Source: Malacoraja senta
Lineage: Eukaryota
DNA length: 64,000 nt
NCBI GenBank assembly: GCA_038087875.1
Contig: CM075993.1
Location: 10,728,001-10,792,000, forward strand
Reading direction: 5' to 3'
In this document: in pieces, positions 20,990 through 31,106 of the stretch
How the letters are laid out: each line of letters starts with the position of its first letter
Position numbering within the stretch: the first letter of the stretch is position 1
Translations under genes and position numbers: made by a program
Notes under the pieces: model-generated
Databases searched by the model: none
The model's input: the letters and a program-made list of their open reading frames with translations, nothing else
What the model was told of the DNA's origin: nothing

Positions 20990-21085
20990 TCAAAGCAGCG
21001 CACAGCGGAAGAAGCTGCTTTTCTTTGACTGGTTCTTGGCGGTGATTTTAACTTGACCACCTCCTCCTGGAGGGCTGTTTTCATT
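20990..21085 (-). CDS. RAB8B: RAB8B-type last coding exon, NENSPPGGGGQVKITAKNQSKKSSFFRCALL*
   Basis: AG acceptor at 21087-21086 and TGA at 20992-20990. The SFFRCxLL CAAX prenylation tail is typical of Rab8. Confidence 0.93.
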   Translation of the reverse strand, partial: NENSPPGGGGQVKITAKNQSKKSSFFRCALL

Positions 21086-24000
21086 CTAGAAACAGAAATA
21101 TATTGTTACAAATGTCTAAAGACAGACTGGTAAACAGCATTCATAAGATTTTAAGACTTTAAAGATACAGCGCGGAAACATGCCCTTCTGCCCACCAAGT
21201 CCGCGCCAACCAGCGATCACCCCGTACACCAACACTACCCCACACACCAGCGACTATTTTATAACTTACCAAAGCCAACTGACCAACAAACCTGCACGTT
21301 TTTGGAGGGTGGGAAGAAACTTGAGCGCCCGGAGAAAACCCATGCGGTCACAGGGAGAATGAACAAACTCCATACAGACAGCACCTGTAGTCAGGATTGA
21401 ACCCTGTCTCTGGCGCTGTAAAGCAGCAACTCCACCGTTGCGCCACCGTGCCGCCCTTAATGTATCTTATCACACTGCTGTTGTATAACAAAAAATCCTG
21501 AACCTTCTCGAAACCATCCCCGTGACGTCTGATAACATTTCAGTCACTTAGATTAAGAAATGATTTCCAACCAGGTTTACTCTCTTGCCTATTCTTCTAT
21601 TGGTGCAGGGTGGAAGGAACAGGCAATTGAAGAAAATGAAACAAGGATGTTGCCAGGACTAGAGGTTTACGAGGATGTTGCCAGGACTAGAGGGTCTGAG
21701 CTCCACGCTGGGTCTCTATTCCTTGGAGTGCAGGATGATGAGGGGTTTTCTTATAGAGTTGTATAAAATCACTAAAGGAATAGATCGGGTAGATGCACAG
21801 AGTCTCTTGCCCAGAGTAGGGGAATCAAGGACCAGAGGACGTAGGTTTAAAGTGAAGGGGACAAGATTTAATAGGAATCTGAGGGTGGTGGGTGTATGGA
21901 ACAAGCTGCCAGAGAAGGTAGTTGAGGCAGGGACCACCCCAACTTGTAAGAAACACCTACAGATACAAGGATAGGACAGGTTTGGAGGGATATGGGCCAA
22001 ATGCAGGCAGATAGGACTAGTGTAGCTGGGACATGTTGGCAAGTTGGGCCGAAGGGCCTGTTTCCACGCTGTATCACTCTATGACTCTAAACAAATGATT
22101 TTGGGAATCACTAGTCCATTACAGAGATTTTCCTGAAAAGTTCTCAAATGGTTTACAAAGCTTCAGGATGAGGGAGCAGTGGCCTTTCCCCCCTCTTAGC
22201 AAATCCACAGGCAACCATTTAAACATCAGACAATCCTTTGGTCTGGAAAGACTGGGGACCCAGGAAGCATAACATCTACTTAGTACAAGCTGGATTACTG
22301 CAGCGTTTAAGTTTAATTAAAGGATTTCTGATGAAGCACAATTCCAACAAAGCTTTGCCCAGGGTACACAAAAATGCTGGAGAAACTCAGCGGGTGCAGC
22401 AGCATCTATGGAGCGAAGGAAATAGGTAACGTTTCGGGCCGAAACCCTTCTTCAGACTCTTCAGCTTTGCCCACATTGTTTTCTCTAGCATGCACAGGAT
22501 ATTTGTAAATGGCAGTCTTTAGCATTGCCAGCCTAATTTAAACCAGAGTTGAATAACTTTGAAGGGCAGCATGGTGGTGCAGCGGTAGAGTTGCTGCCTT
22601 ACAGCGCCAGAGACCCGGGTTAGATCCTGACTACAGGTGCTGTTTGCACAGAGTTTGTATGTTCTCCCTGTGAGTTTTCCCTGGGTGCTCCGGTTTCCTC
22701 CCACACTCCAAAGACGTACATGGTTGCAGGTGAATTGGCTTCGGTCAAAATTGTAAATTGTCCCTAGTGTGTGGGATAGTGTTAGTGTATGGGGTGCTCG
22801 CTGGACGACGCGGACTCAGTGGGCCGATGGGCCTATTTCCGCACTGCATCTGTATCTCCAAAGTCTAAGCTAGCAAACAGAAACAGAAACTGATCTTTCA
22901 AAACAGAACAGAACAGACCAGTGAGCCGAGTCACCATCCACTTGCCAGCTCTGTCACAGGCAGTCACTGTGTAGTGTTTGCAATTTGATGGAATGGGATA
23001 GCAACATATAGAGCAGGTCGAAGCGTCAGGTTTAACACATGGTTCCCACTTCCTACACTGGCTTGACCTTCATGGTATGAAGGAATTTTAAGTGGTAGAT
23101 GGAAGATTTACAAGGATGTTGCCAGGACTTGATGCCCTGAGCTATGGAGATAGGATGGGCAGGCTGGAGTACCAATGGATCAAGGGTGATCTTACAGAGG
23201 TGTATAAGATCATGAGAGGTATGGATAGGGTGGATGAACAATCTTGTACCCAGTCGAGAATCAGAGAGGGAAAACATTTCAAGCAGAGGTTAAAAATTTA
23301 ATAAGAACCCGAGGGGCAACGTTTTCCACACAGAGGGTGGTGGCTTTTGGAATGAGCAGCCAGAGGAGGTTGTTGAGGCAGGTACTACAACAACATTTAA
23401 AAGACATTAGGATACGAACAGGGACGGGAAAGATTTAGAGGGACGTGGACCAAATGCGGACAAGTAAGACTATTGCAGATGGGGCTTCTTGGTCGGCACC
23501 GGCAAGTTGGGCCGAAGAGCCTATTTCCATAAAGAGTCATAGTAATTCAGTGTGGAAACAGGCCCTTTGACCCAACTTGCCCACACCGGCCAACATGTCT
23601 CGGCTACACTAGTCCCACCTGCCCGCATTTGGTTCATATCCCTCCAAACCTGTCCTATCCATGTGCCTGTCTAACTGTTTCTTAAATGCTGGGATAGTAT
23701 GACTGTATGACTCGGACTCTTAAAGATATCAACATTGAGAACACTTCTCTATTAAGAGCTTGGCATGATACCAACTCATGAGTAAGATTTACCAGCCTGA
23801 CACCCTGCTGTGCTGGATCACTGATTAGTACGAAGGCACATTCCTCGCAGCACACTACATGCGAGTGAGACTATTGAAGATGGCTACATGGCATTAGCTG
23901 TGCGTGGCTATCCTGCCCATTGCACACAAAAAATAATGCAAGGGTTCATTCAAGCTTCACCCATACTAGACCTGAGCTTTTACAGTTTGTGACTTGCTTC

Positions 24001-24398
24001 TCTGGTAAAGACACAATAACAGTAAAAAGGTAGAAGCCTGTTCTATACAATGCAAAATGCCACGACTGTTTGCTTTGGTGCCACACAGCACTGGAGAGAC
24101 TCATGCCGCAGTGTTACACCAGAGAAAGATCCCAGGCATGAGTGGGTTAACGTACAATAAGCATTTGACGGCACCAGGCCTGTTTTCGCTGAGTTTGGAA
24201 GAATGAGGGGGGGTGGGACCTCATTGAAGCGTACAGAATGGTGAAAGGCTTGGAGAGAGTGGATGTGGAGAGGATGTTTCCACTAGTGGGGGAGTCCAGA
24301 ACTAGAGGTCATAGCCTCAGAATTAAAGGGCGTTCCTTTAGGAAGGAGAGGAGGAGGAATTATTTAGTCAGAGGACGGTGAATCTATGGAATTCATTG

Positions 24399-25762
24399 TA
24401 GACTGTGGGCCGAGGTGCTTTCTCATTTCATTTTCTGATCCAAATCACGTGTCTACCTATATTTATAACATATTGTGTAAAAATATTATAGAAATCAGAC
24501 CTGAAACTCGTCAAGAACAAAACCTGAACATATTTTTAAAAGATGAGAAAAACCTCAAATTTTCTGAGTAGTAATTGTCCAATCAAAGCACGTTTGACAT
24601 TGAGTCGGACGGCAATTGACCAATCACGCACTTTGTTTCATGCTAGCTAGGCAGCGAGCACACTGGGATCATGGCTGCCTCCTAATTACATCACAACAAT
24701 AGCAAGGTTTCGAAGGAAGAAAGGTAATGCAACCACTTGCTGATTATTTTGTTTTACAACTGATTTATCTTTGTAAAGTTATGATGTTGCGAACTGTGAA
24801 ATAAAAATGCAATATAAAAATGTAGAGCTAGGGTTAGGGTCAGGGTTAGGATTAGGCATTTTCCTCTCAGTGGAAGAGGGTTAGGGTTAGGGCAGGGGAC
24901 GGCAACCTACAGCCCAAGGGCCAGATCCTGCCCGTAACCCAAAAACATCCAGCCCGCAGGCGTATTTTTTTTTCTGAGGACTTCCGTGACGGAGCTGGCA
25001 CTATGGGGGTGCTGAAGGCGACCTGAGCAGCAGGGGTGGAAGAGAGGATTTCAGTCAGTCGGCCGGGCTGTCGGCCGGCCGGTGTTGCATCAGGCGGGCG
25101 GGCGTTCTGATGGAGCTGGCACTATTGGGGTGCTGAAGGCGGCCCGGGCAGCATGCAGGGCAGTGCTACTCCCCACCATGTTGACACTCGGTCTAATCGT
25201 GGCGTCGGGTGGACTGCTGCTGATGATCCAGAAGGGCATGCTGGCCGAGGTGGACGCGCTGAGCGGCCACATATACGGAGCGGTCCCAAAGTGGTTCCAG
25301 CTCCAGCCGTGGGCAGCTCTGGAAGGGGGCGGGTTAGGGTTAGGGGTAGGCATTTTCCTCTCAGTGGAAGATGCCTTAACCTTCCCCCAGCCTGGCACTG
25401 CCCCAGTCCCACTATGGCCATGACCCCCACTCTGCACACTGGCAGTCAGTGGGGTTCCGTAAACGGGGAACTGCCCTCACCCATTAATTAGGCGGGTTCA
25501 GGAGCCGGTGAAACCCGGGACCTCTGCAGCAATCCCGTATTCAATGTTCCCATACACAGCTATATATTATTGAGCACAAGAGGGCACTGTTACTTTTTCT
25601 AATTAGCTTCATTAATTAGTGTGCAACTTTTTGCACTGTTGAGTTATGAATTCCTTATCAGTGATGTTTTATCTAATTCTGTGCCAAATTTTAAGTCGAT
25701 ACCGGACATGGGTCATGAAAGTTAAAATCTAGAGCCCTTTTGGCACCTCGGCCCACGGCCTA
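24399..25762. mobile_element. Non-autonomous TIR DNA transposon (TAG termini, hAT-like, 1364 bp) carrying a gene fragment
   Basis: 20-bp TIRs tagactgtgggccgaggtgc / gcacctcggcccacggccta (2 mismatches). It interrupts a HER1 LINE fragment. No clean TSD. Confidence 0.75.
25124..25260 (+). pseudogene. CHST14: Captured CHST14 (D4ST1) N-terminal transmembrane fragment, VLLPTMLTLGLIVASGGLLLMIQKGMLAEV
   Basis: Close to human CHST14 as recalled ([30 protein letters not shown]). No sulfotransferase domain follows. Confidence 0.75.
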
Positions 25763-26139
25763 TCGTCACTGTGGAGGCCGTGAATGGATATTTTTACAGC
25801 AGAGATAGATAGATCCTTGATTAGTATGGCTGTCAGGGTTATGGGGCGAAGGCAGGAGAATGGGGTTAGGACGGAGAGTTAGATCAGCCTTGATTGGATA
25901 GTGGTGTAGACTTGATGGGCCGAATGGCCTTATTCTGCTCCTATCACTTATGACCTTGTGAGCAGAGTCAGGAAGAGTGGGTGAAGCACACAAGGAGGGT
26001 GCCGTTAAGCAGCAGTGAAATCGCAGCTTCTCCCAGTCCAGCACTCCCAGTGGGAAGAAACACCTCTCAGCATTTGTAAACAGGCCTGGGCACCACATTT
26101 CTACAAGAGCATCTTCCAGCCCCAGAAACATTTACGTAC

Positions 26140-26190
26140 CATTTTCCTGTTGAGCTTTGTCATGATGTCTCGTGCAAGTGTGATAAATGC
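26140..26190 (-). CDS. RAB8B: RAB8B-type coding exon (51 nt), AFITLARDIMTKLNRKM
   Basis: ttttgttgcAG acceptor and GTACGT donor. In frame with the flanking exons. KLNRKM is RAB8B-like rather than RAB8A-like (KMDKKL). Confidence 0.95.
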
Positions 26191-29100
26191 CTGCAACAAA
26201 AAGAAATAAGCGACTGTCACATGTAGCTGTGGTTACTGTGCACCGGTGGTTACAGAAATGGAGTCAATAGACAATAGGTGCAGCAGTAGGCCATTTGGCC
26301 CTTCAAGCCAGCACCGCCATTCAATGTGATCATGTCCGATCATCCCCAATCAGTACCCCATTCCTGCCTTCTCCCCATATCCCCTGACTCCGCTATTTTT
26401 AAGACCCCTATCTAGCTCTCTCTTGAAAGTATCCAGAGAATCTGCTTCCACCGCCCTCTGAGGCAGAGAATTCCACAGACTCACAACTCTCTGTGAGAAA
26501 AAGTGTTTCCTCGTCTCCGTTCTAAATGGCTTACTCCTTATTCTTAAACTGTGGCCCCTGGTTCTGGACTCCCCCAACATCGGGAACATGTTTCCTGCCT
26601 CTAGCGTGTCCAAGCCCTTAACAATCTTATATGTTTCAATGAGATTCCCTCTCATCCTTCTAAACTCCAGAGTGTACAGAGTCACGGTGTTAAAAGCTGC
26701 ACATTTAGCATCAACCCCCCTCCAAAAAAGACACAACTTCCTTTCTGATGAAAGATTGCAATGCCTCCTCTGCAAAAGTTGCTTGCTGCACACAAGCACA
26801 CAATCATGCACGGTTTAACAGGTGGTCAGCTTCATGTGTGTGATATTCCCCCCAACAGCAGCGCTTCCTGAAATGGCGTGACAAGAACACTCGAATCTAA
26901 CATGCCAGTCACTTAGAGAAATCACTTTTAGATGCAAACAAGCTGAAAACACTGAATGCTTTCACCAATTTTACTCAGAGATTCCAAACGTTTGGCATTT
27001 CTGAAGAAAAAAAGATGAGAATAATCTTGATTTTTAAAAATGGAAAAAAAAATCAAGTTACACAGCACTAGTATGCAGAAAAAGTGTTCATGTTCGTAAG
27101 TGATAGGAACAGAATTAGGCCATTCGGCCCATCGAGTCTACTCCCCCATTCAATCATGGCTGATCTATCTTTCCCTCTCAACTCCATTCTCCTGCCTTCT
27201 CCCCATAACCACGGACACCCGTACTAATCAAGAGCTAATATTTAAGGTTGATAGACATTGCTGCTGCCTGCCTGACCCACTGAGTTTCTCCAGCTCTTTG
27301 TGTCTATCTTCGGTTTAAACCAGCATCTTCCGTTTAAACCAGCAACCATTAAACCTGCACTTCCTTCCTACACATAATATTTGTCAACTTTTCCCCAGTT
27401 ATTCTGATGCAAGGCCATTGACCTGAAACACTAGGTGTTGTCTTTTCAAATGCTTTCTGATCGGCAAAGTACAGCCAACATTTTGTATTCATTTCATATT
27501 TTCAACTTCCACCATATTTTGCTTGTGTGTCATTTTGGTTTCAGAGGTCATTAGACACAGCTATATTTCAAACGAAAGGTTGCAAACGTTACTTGTCCAG
27601 AACCCAGAGCTGAAGTGTGATTCCATCATCTTTCGTTATGAAGGTAGACAAAAATGCTGGAGAAACTCAGCGGGTGAGGCAGCATCTATGGAGCGAAGGA
27701 AATAGGCAATGTTTCGGGCCGAATCCCTTCAAGGAAATAGGCAACGTTTCGGGCCGAATCCCTTGAAGGAAATAGGCAACGTTTCTGGCCGAAACCCTTC
27801 AAGGGTTTCGGCCCGAAATGTTGCCTATTTCCTTCGCTCCATAGATGCTGCCGCACCCGCTGAGTTTCTCCAGCATTTTTGTCTACCTTCGATTTTCCAG
27901 CATCTGCAGTTCCTTCCTAAAACAATCTTTCATTATGAATACTGCTTACTCTGTTCCAGATTAGATTTCCGACCTGACAGTTATAGAAACTAAACTTGCA
28001 GACATAGACACTTAAATTGTAGCAGAAAAATATTTTTTAATGTTCTTAAAGACGATTAGTGTATTTAGTGCTATATATAATTTATGTTGGATGGCACAGT
28101 GATGCAGCTGCCTCATAGCATCGGATAACCTAGTTCAACCCCAACCTAAGGTGCTGTCGCAAGTTCACAAGTATAGTAGAATTAGGCCATTCGGCCCATC
28201 GAGTCTACTCCGCAATTCAATCACGGCCGATTTCTGCCTCCTAATCCCATTTTCCTGCCTTCTCCCCATAACGACACCTGTTCTAATCAAGAATTTGTCT
28301 ATGGGAGGAGAATGGGAGTCTGAAGAAGGGTTTCGGCCCGAAACGTTACCTATTTCCTTCGCTCCATAGATGCTGCTGCACCCGCTGAGTTTCTCCAGCA
28401 TTTTTGTGTACCTAAGAATTTGTCTATCTCTGCCTTAAAAATATCCACTGACGGCCTCCACATCCCTCTGTGGCAATGAGTTCCACAGATGAACTATTCT
28501 CTGACTAAAGAGGTTCCTCCTCACCTCCTTTCTAAAAGAGCGCCTTTTAATTCTGAGGCTATGACCTCTGGTCCTAGACTCTCCCACTAGTGGAAACATC
28601 CTCTCCACATCCACTCTATCTATGCCTTTCATTATTCTGTAAGTTTCAATGAGGTCCCCCTCAAACTTCTAAACTCCAGCAAATAGAGGCCCAGTGCTGT
28701 CAAACGCTCATCATATGCTAACCCACTCATTCCTGGAATCATTCTTGTAAACCTCCTGTTGACCCTCTCCAGAGCCAGCACACCCTTCCTCAGATATGGG
28801 GCCCACATTTGTCTGCATGGAGTTTAACTGTTCTCCTTGTGACCATGTGGACATGTGACAGGTGTTCCCGGTTTCCTCCCACATCCCAAAGATGTGCAGG
28901 TTTAATCGGTTGACTGGCCTCTGTAAATTGTCCCTAATGTATAGGGTGTGGGATAATGTAGAATTAGTGTGAATGGGTGATCGATGGTCAATGTGGACTC
29001 AGTGGGCCGAAGGGCCTGTTTCCATGCTGTATCTTTCAATCAATCAATAATGTCACCATTTCACCCAAATAACCTGCATCAGTGTTACCGTATATAGAAG

Positions 29101-29306
29101 TGTTCATCTCATCGGCTATTTAATTTAATTGGAGTTGATGCATGCATGGTACAAATTGAAACAAGCTTCAAGACAGAAAAGACGATGAGAAAACCAAATG
29201 AGGTGGGAACAGGGTCGACAAAGCAAAGGATTTATGCAGAGGGAAAATAAACAAGAGAAGGCAGCTGACCAAGGAACTAAAATCATCTTTGTGAAATTAA
29301 TTTACA

Positions 29307-29612
29307 GTTTAGTTTAGTTTAGAGATACAGAGCGGAAACAGGCCCTTCGGCCCACTGAGTCTGCACCGACCAGCGATCCCTGCACATTAACACTATCCTA
29401 CACACAGTGACAATTTTCATTTATACCAAGCCAATTAACCTACAAACCTGTACGTCTTTGGAGTGTGGGAGGAAACCGAAGATCTCAGAGAAAACCCACG
29501 CAGGTCACGGGGAGAACGTACAAACTCTGTACAGACAAGCACCCGTAGTCAGGATTGAACCCGGGTCTCTGGTGCCGTAAGGCAGCAGCTCTACTGCTGC
29601 GCCACCGTGCCC
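29307..29612 (-). mobile_element. HE1-type SINE, near-consensus (others at ~12612, 17391, 21160, 22563, 32440, 37435, 42241, 48906, 56470, 59140)
   Basis: Full head, core and (AAACT)n tail. Confidence 0.88.
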
Positions 29613-30859
29613 CTTGGTGTTGGCAAGACTAGCCATTAATCCGATTGCTGGACTATTTCAGGTGCAGTTAACAGTCAAGCGTATTGCTGTGGGTCTTGAG
29701 TCACAAGGACAAAACCAGATTCAGGAAGGATATCTCTCCTCAAATACATGAATGAAGCAGCAACTGCTAGCTACAGTCAAAAGCAAACTGCTTGGGGAAC
29801 TCAGCTAGTCACAGATAGCTACATGCATGTTATCCCCAATAAAGATATCTGTGTGTCACGGACCAACCCTGTATCATAATCATGATGCCATCATTGTCCC
29901 ATGTCGTATATATAGAACTAGAGTTTAAAAAATGGAATCATAATATCACACATAGGCTAGATTGGGCCAGATTTCTCCCGAAAGAAATTGTTGAAATAAT
30001 CGACGTTTTCAGGGCAACACAAACTTCCGCAGTCATTGCGCACTTGTCCCAGACTCCACAAGTGAATATGAATTGCCCAGCTGCCTCAGGTAACCAGTTC
30101 AGTAAATTAACCAATGTCCCATTACATCCATCTGCTGTTTACTTATCTGTCAAAGGAGTTCACCCCCTACTCAATAAATTGGGCCACTTCAATTATACCT
30201 CATCTTGCACCTCTTCTTTCGTCATTCACTCTCTCCTACCTTGTCGCAGACACTATGATGTCCTTTCCTTGCCTCCCCTTTCTCAATCTGCAAACTTCAC
30301 AGTCTCTAATGTTTTTTGATCAAAGATCAGCATGAACTGCTCATTGTTTCGTCCCCAGCAGATGCTGCCAGCCCAGCCAAATATTTGTTCTAATTTCAGA
30401 ATTTTTGTAACAAATTCATTTTCAATATAAATTCGAACATAGAACAGTGCAACACGGGAACAGGCCCTTCAGCCCATGATGCCTGTGCCAAATAGGATGC
30501 TAAATTAAACATCGCCTTTAATCTTGCCCCCCGATATTAAAGCTAGGCCCTCTAATACGTGAAGATAGACACAAAAAACTGGAGTAACTCAGCAGGTCAG
30601 GCAGAATCTCTGGAGCAAAGGGATGGGTGACGTTTCGGGACACCCATTCCTTTTCTCCAGAGATGCTGCCTGTCCCGATGAGTTCTCCAGCTTTTTGTGT
30701 CTATCTTCGGTTCCTTCCTACACCCCTAGTACTTGACATTGTTATCCTGGGGAGAAGATGTGTACCCACTCAGTGGTTGGCAAGTTCAGGCTACACAATA
30801 AACACATACATTTATTTGTACATTAAATCAGTTTGCACACATTTCTCCTGGTTTCTTAC

Positions 30860-30925
30860 CTCTTCAACGTTTATGCTGGATTTTGCACTGGTTTCCAGGA
30901 ACTTAATCCCATAATCTATCGCTAA
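30860..30925 (-). CDS. RAB8B: RAB8B-type coding exon (66 nt), LAIDYGIKFLETSAKSSINVEE
   Basis: AG/GTAAG boundaries and the G5 motif ETSAK. A 91-nt intron separates it from the previous exon. Confidence 0.95.
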
Positions 30926-31016
30926 CTATTGGGAAAAGTAACACTAAGCATTAGTCAAAAGAAAAATACACCTGAACAATTAGTCTTAAAAAAAGAAACC
31001 ATTTTTGTTGCCTTAC

Positions 31017-31106
31017 CTTCTCCCCTCGCTCTTTTGACACTTGCCTTTTCTCATTCATGTCACACTTGTTTCCCAGGATCATCCTTTCCACATCCGATGA
31101 TGCATG
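31017..31106 (-). CDS. RAB8B: RAB8B-type GTPase internal coding exon (90 nt), HASSDVERMILGNKCDMNEKRQVSKERGEK
   Basis: AG acceptor at 31108-31107 and GTAAG donor from 31016. Translation contains the G4 motif NKCD in Rab8 context. Phase 0 at both ends. Confidence 0.95.

Follow-up and report, generated by a model that had tools for sequence, protein, structure and literature searches.

Helitrons are rolling-circle transposons that have neither TIRs nor target duplications (TSDs). Academ elements have the ends 5'-TAG...CTA-3', and the nuclease of AcademX elements is of the XPG type. In the available part of a published account, a 3- or 4-bp TSD and a nuclease were given for AcademX, and a 9-10 bp TSD and a helicase for AcademH (PMC10045372). 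TIR elements that carry host sequence (Pack-TIRs) have been surveyed in 100 animal genomes; according to the portion of the survey that was accessible, 370 were present in 55 genomes, only 4 were multicopy, and the examples had 3 and 5 copies (PMC8277862). Academ is absent from the superfamily columns of Supplementary Data 2 of that survey, and the elephant shark is listed with 0 Pack-TIRs. In bats, the Helitron HelibatN3 includes NUBPL's promoter, 5' UTR, and first exon in about a thousand copies (PMC4224331, also accessible in part). The manner in which TIR transposons capture genes is still argued, with gap filling, end bypass, and FoSTeST under discussion.

The subject of this study was an insertion in a 64-kb stretch of skate DNA (hereafter, the window). 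The preferred reading, which we hold with a probability of about 85%, is that the insertion belongs to a non-autonomous TIR family (at least 160 copies, with an estimate of 380) that carries most of exon 1 of CHST14. This cargo would have been captured once, by template switching during the repair of a broken AcademX-type element, and the family would have spread in trans by means of a transposase that is now decayed.

The insertion and its internal anatomy

A single copy of a TIR transposon occupies positions 24399-25762 of the window; the transposon is non-autonomous, has TAG ends, and makes target duplications of 3 bp. The left TIR (24399-24418, plus strand) begins with TAG; it and the right TIR (25743-25762, minus strand) are inverted arms of 20 nt that are 90% complementary. 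When the arm sequence was sought at up to 3 mismatches, the 2 matches in the window were the two element ends, a result reached in 0 of 100 shuffles; the insertion and the TIRs of the preliminary description were thereby upheld. The left TSD is TTG (24396-24398), and the right, identified by flank comparison, is TCG (25763-25765), which differs at one base. The older repeat interrupted by the insertion (24171-25960, plus strand) is continuous across the site in other window copies. The splitting of a repeat had thus been described properly, and we take the repeat to be the 3' end of a CR1-type LINE. Rab8-family exons flank the element on the minus strand (26140-26190 and 20990-21085). The element is therefore in the last intron of a Rab8-family host gene, whose 3' exons span 20990-31106, and the cargo is antisense to that gene. 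The location given at the outset stood to this extent, and the gene is presumably RAB8B rather than 8A. Elsewhere in the window (27640-27890), two repeats placed head to head make up an inverted repeat (95 nt, 95%), with three tandem units of 35 bp.

All internal segments are described on the plus strand. The left arm (24399-24675) is common to transposase-bearing elements, with 82-86% identity to loci L153, L139, L093, and L156. It features two CCAAT boxes (near 24577 and 24618) in a putative promoter region, and the transposase ATG is at 24671. Remnants of the 5' interior of the autonomous-type element follow (24701-24829; 88-91% identity to L156); judged by this identity and the breakpoint context, they probably represent an exon end and an intron. 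TTAGGG-like arrays (24830-24892) then flank a duplicated right-arm piece of ca. 23 nt (24855-24877), as recognized from internal repeats in the window. One end of a hAT-type MITE comes next (24893-24972), and this piece is also present in the sister derivatives L139 and L093. A search with the MITE end gave 1,738 first-look candidates, 14 of which were examined; one (L198, 614 bp) was a full copy with TIRs and an 8-bp TSD. Thirteen of the 14 examined matches were located in one common flank (L194-L207; L139:943-1696); the MITE piece was thus amplified by a carrier element.

The CHST14 sequence is present in two parts. One is a short additional copy of the sequence around the start codon (about -16 to +23; 24987-25022), which was recognized as an internal repeat of the cargo. 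The main cargo (25023-25331) comprises the 5' leader and coding exon 1 to about +231, with 80% identity to the host locus over q666-931. The 30-residue CHST14-like peptide that had been reported at 25163-25252 is present in frame 1, and the cargo frame agrees with the CHST14 protein of a skate at 46 of 51 residues. In the window copy, the cargo junction seen in the family is missing its first ca. 9 nt, indels follow codon 53, and the start codon has mutated to ATT (25124-25126). At the 3' junction of the cargo, a TTAGGG-like array was read from the sequence (25332-25348). The right arm (25349-25762) stems from sequence downstream of the transposase gene, with 78-87% identity to L153 and two copies in L141. 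The segment to the right of the cargo was also considered as a second cargo; this was ruled out, as it is the element's own sequence.

TTAGGG-like repeats were also found at a deletion junction in the cargo-free derivatives L093 and L139. Such arrays at element junctions are an unexplained clue, and healing of the telomerase type would be a guess. The literature search yielded nothing relevant on TTAGGG at transposon deletions (by title), and no paper among those listed dealt with CHST14.

The donor gene, the family, and the time of capture

The donor is the single CHST14 gene of the genome, on contig C1. Human CHST14 had been given as single-exon; in this genome, the gene has two exons. The exon-1 locus (L011) lies 7 kb upstream of the Sulfotransfer_2 exon (L055) and encodes the CHST14 N-terminus as far as a GT donor at +247. 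The best relatives of the sulfotransferase exon are chondrichthyan CHST14 proteins, with 96% identity to the Leucoraja erinacea cluster. In the family as a whole, the cargo extends from about -181 to +231 of CHST14, plus the short extra copy, and thus ends ca. 15 nt before the exon-1 donor. No remnant of, and no match to, the autonomous-type element was found in the 19.6 kb around CHST14. In the leader of the gene (L011:1330-1440), there is a repeat of ca. 40 bp whose number is highly variable among cargo copies. A further Sulfotransfer_2 match (L057; G000:C8:37216281-37216964) has four internal stops and is likely a CHST-family pseudogene.

A degenerate TIR pattern had 170 exact matches in the 1.94-Gb genome, compared to 0 for the control, and the right-end pattern had 76. 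A 20-mer from the cargo had 161 exact matches including the host gene, i.e. 160 outside it. Of 38 copies recovered independently, through the TIR or the right arm, 16 contain this 20-mer exactly, and about 380 copies were estimated from this proportion (95% interval 270-610); this is probably an underestimate, since the calibration loci were the best-scoring ones. TSDs were tabulated for the first loci: 3-bp duplications were perfect in 19 of 27 end pairs, and 4-bp duplications in 0. The other eight pairs comprised three with one mismatch (the window copy, L019, and L037), one with two mismatches (L015), two miscalled right ends, and two from one rearranged locus. Twenty further cargo loci were then added (13 in list order from contig C1 and seven picked). 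Element arms were located beside the cargo in 20/20, and a perfect 3-bp TSD was observed in all nine that had both ends. Overall, the TSDs were perfect in 28 of 36 end pairs and lay at different flanks; the triplets were varied and non-specific. Host non-TE sequence is thus held between TIR ends, in several copies with distinct TSDs, and its parent is unique and unlinked. In these respects, the proposal that a cut-and-paste element had captured the 5' coding end of CHST14 was correct.

The cargo copies differ from the majority sequence by a mean of 6.5% (3.8-10.3%, n=38). Against the host gene, a gap of 12 nt and a single substitution recur in 48 of 48 aligned copies, and some ten more differences were present in most of them. 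Because differences from the host gene are common to all aligned copies, one capture followed by amplification is indicated.

Several structural forms were distinguished. Two contain the hAT piece, one with a long right arm (L173) and one with a short arm (the window copy); two are hAT-less, the second of them with an in-frame loss of 33 nt. The last of these, in which membrane-anchor codons are lost, was the commonest when counted from alignment gap columns (28/48 aligned copies; 17/20 further loci). The hAT-bearing form is probably the oldest, as it holds more CHST14 sequence. In a tree of left arms (71 rows), cargo-bearing copies fell in two separate arm clades; arms were therefore likely exchanged, and the tree does not give the order of the forms. 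The cargo-free locus L037 has the short right arm and may itself be the product of a later deletion, and no pre-capture element was identified among the loci examined.

Some derivatives were of a different make. Three loci (L046, L035, and L038, about 280-1250 from the left TIR) represent a subfamily with the same left 277 bp and then ca. 1 kb of a different interior, which could be a second cargo. Unplaced contigs contained near-identical family derivatives of ca. 9.7 kb (L125-L136) with nested retrovirus-like envelope frames and back-to-back TIRs; the arrangement, repeated on many small contigs, suggests a larger tandem or segmental repeat. At L091:1673-5876, the right end of the element is present in three tandem copies at a spacing of ca. 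2 kb.

The time of capture was approached from the cargo itself. Its codon 2 specifies Gly, as in the stingray, electric-ray, and white-shark proteins; the host and Leucoraja-cluster proteins have Val. The Ser-rich stalk is skate-like. On account of these two features, the likely time of capture falls between the divergence of skates from the other rays and the split of the host from the Leucoraja cluster, unless the master element changed at the codon-2 base. Arms and cargo were found in sequencing runs of organisms B, C, and E, consistent with this timing. The cargo 5' junction was identical in 16 copies, and the same junction was found in the runs of four other organisms (B, D, G, and H). 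Among the relatives, no contig spanned the insertion site of the window copy, and four runs gave no coverage of the orthologous sequence upstream of CHST14.

The partner family and its assignment

Other elements in the genome have the first 277 bp of the pack element, followed by an ATG-initiated frame. Searches were carried out with N- and C-terminal pieces of the protein, and the best 150 of 552 and the best 150 of 469 candidates, respectively, were scored; a near-complete transposase was recovered via the C-terminal search only. Partner L153 is 8.1 kb in length, has the TSD TAA/TAA, and contains both arms of the pack element. It and two others (L163 and L166) encode a broken long protein of ca. 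1,400 aa with a TCR/CXC domain at the end. All partner copies examined were broken, and no intact transposase was found among them. A family with the ends and TSD of the anticipated autonomous partner therefore exists, in decayed copies. Long TIR pairs (L091-L104 and L125-L142) had also been considered for this role; these were deletion derivatives lengthened by nested insertions.

The relatives of the partner protein are unnamed animal proteins, of which the longer ones have 1,400-1,650 aa. In tblastn, L153 is matched by residues 118-1428 of an intact homolog, P0121, at 43-66%. For structural comparison, this homolog (67% identity over the query) was modelled in place of the skate copy. The core model (pLDDT 88.9) resembled the transposase of the P element at Z 13.6 (290 aligned, rmsd 4.6), Hermes at Z 8.3, and RAG at Z 6.3. 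The C-terminal model (pLDDT 95.9) matched Exo1 (Z 14.2, rmsd 3.8, 262 aligned), FEN1 (Z 12.6), and XPG (Z 11.8), as well as Xrn1 and GEN1. The partner is thus predicted to encode a DDE transposase, an XPG/FEN1-type nuclease, and a CXC end. When pieces of the transposase were compared with Pfam and PDB by sequence, only CXC and a weak Exo1 match (E 0.26-0.42) were returned, and no helicase domain was present in the Pfam scans. The clusters returned by an Atlas search were unnamed, and XPG ones came up only at 0.79. Some homologs of the partner protein match DUF6589, which we take to be linked to Academ; a DUF6589 search of the genome gave no matches, but neither did its control.

The features found are those of AcademX: a 3-bp TSD, TAG ends, a DDE transposase in the homolog model, and a nuclease with no helicase seen. 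The partner family was filed as AcademX-type by TSD, ends, and domain layout rather than by comparison to curated Academ sequences. The window copy has the 3-bp TSD in common with AcademX elements, as does its partner the order of DDE transposase and then nuclease; it differs from them in that it is non-autonomous and carries host cargo.

Capture of the cargo and comparison with known systems

The proposed sequence of events begins with a break in an AcademX-type element, the repair of which by repeated template switching would have generated a mosaic. Copying would have proceeded from the left arm of the element through TTAGGG-like filler to the end of a hAT MITE and the start region of CHST14. 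It would then have returned to CHST14 at -181, continued to +231, and passed through filler into the right arm of the element, duplicating the 23-nt piece. Repeated template switching is the best explanation because of the mosaic order of arm, filler, hAT, and CHST14 pieces; the FoSTeST model is offered for comparison (PMC8277862, available part). Later deletions likely gave rise to the form without the hAT piece and then to the commonest form, and amplification likely occurred in trans by the transposase of the partner family before its decay.

The point at which CHST14 was entered raises the question of whether the capture was guided, i.e. whether binding or cleavage of a TIR-like sequence upstream of CHST14 by the Academ transposase brought the locus to the broken element. 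The best TIR match on both strands of the 19.6 kb around the gene (16/20; the next best is 14/20) begins at -188, and the constant cargo start at -181 is inside it; when the 700-bp region was shuffled 3000 times, 35 of the shuffles contained a match of at least 16 anywhere. However, the shuffle test was devised after the match had been seen, and the join falls 7 nt within the motif instead of at its outer edge, where a cut would be expected. Moreover, the upstream partner at the join is another CHST14 piece, for which a near 4-nt microhomology could suffice. Guidance is accordingly regarded as unlikely, and the site at the capture boundary as an unexplained clue. Less likely again is an origin of the cargo from CHST14 RNA, by reverse transcription or RNA-templated repair, instead of from genomic DNA. 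The cargo is all exon-side, sense to the putative left-arm promoter, and ends before the intron, but it stops short of the splice donor, spans no splice junction, and lacks both exon 2 and poly(A). Template switching on DNA is in keeping with the return from +23 to -181 and with the mixture of pieces from hAT and the element.

Slightly less probable than an RNA origin is that the cargo is functional or favored, whether as a signal-anchor peptide of ca. 100 aa, as a source of regulatory RNAs against CHST14, or as an aid to spread. The majority frame reads through the 3' junction without a stop, 34 of 38 copies retain the ATG, an in-frame deletion characterizes the commonest form, and bat Helitrons that bear 5' gene ends attain higher copy numbers (PMC4224331, in the part available). 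Against this, pN/pS relative to the majority is 0.92 (uncorrected for CpG decay, and for best-scoring copies), net frameshifts affect 14 of 38 copies within the first 54 codons, and there are several stops. CpGs are reduced (mean of 18 in copies vs. 25 in the host), a deletion has one chance in three of being in-frame, and the window copy has lost its ATG. Without exon 2, it does not have the makeup of a functional CHST14 paralog. Parts of the element are covered by one sequencing run, presumed to be of RNA; this carries no weight either way. The copies show no sign of protein-level selection, and the cargo is likely a neutral, passive passenger.

The label "Pack-MULE-style", by which the element was originally described, was suggested by TIRs and gene cargo, as in Pack-MULEs. 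MULEs make TSDs of 9-11 bp, and Harbinger elements make TSDs of 3 bp with a TWA target preference. Here, the TSDs are 3 bp, the varied triplets display no TWA preference, and the partner protein has CXC together with a DDE core and a nuclease of the XPG type; the label did not hold, and derivation from a MULE or PIF/Harbinger element is extremely improbable. As doubtful as guidance is a joint reading that would combine recognition of a cryptic TIR upstream of CHST14 by the AcademX transposase, healing of the broken element with telomere-type repeats, the largest vertebrate Pack-TIR family found in the literature search, a presence across skates, and a favored loss of anchor codons. We retain a single capture by template switching, with spread in trans, as the likely account of this family.

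Pack-TIRs are a known kind of element, and the superfamily and copy number encountered here are without counterpart in the literature searched. There, no report of cargo-carrying Academ elements or of the skate CHST14 family was found; subscription papers and Repbase were largely outside its scope, and prior deposition is possible. Gene capture is thereby extended to an AcademX-type element and to a cartilaginous fish. One capture has been kept in hundreds of copies, in several forms and several related species, with donor and partner known, such that junctions and timing can be read directly. In practical work on skates, the presence of hundreds of sequences close to CHST14 exon 1 can lead to errors in annotation, read mapping, and probe design.

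Such capture had been called rarely documented in vertebrates; this does not apply to Pack-TIRs as such, given the numbers surveyed, but it does apply to the multicopy kind, with four families (PMC8277862, as far as available). Those families, which include Pack-hAT-N8_XT with the CAPSL 5' UTR and Ssk-FB4, resemble the skate family in their TIRs and host cargo, GC-rich 5' end, distant parent, distinct TSDs, and consistency with FoSTeST. The skate family differs in having about 380 copies instead of 3-5, and composite junctions with hAT and TTAGGG-like pieces. Plant Pack-MULEs (as cited in the accessible part of PMC8277862) likewise carry gene fragments between TIRs, with a bias to 5' and GC-rich sequence, and are often multicopy; the skate family is of another superfamily, with short 20-nt TIRs and 3-bp TSDs. 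HelibatN3, as far as it is described in the part of its source that was available, is alike in being a vertebrate DNA element that carries the 5' end of one housekeeping gene in hundreds of copies or more. It is a rolling-circle Helitron, whereas the skate element is of the cut-and-paste type; because the bat Helitron bears the NUBPL 5' end at such numbers, the copy scale seen in the skate has a rolling-circle precedent.
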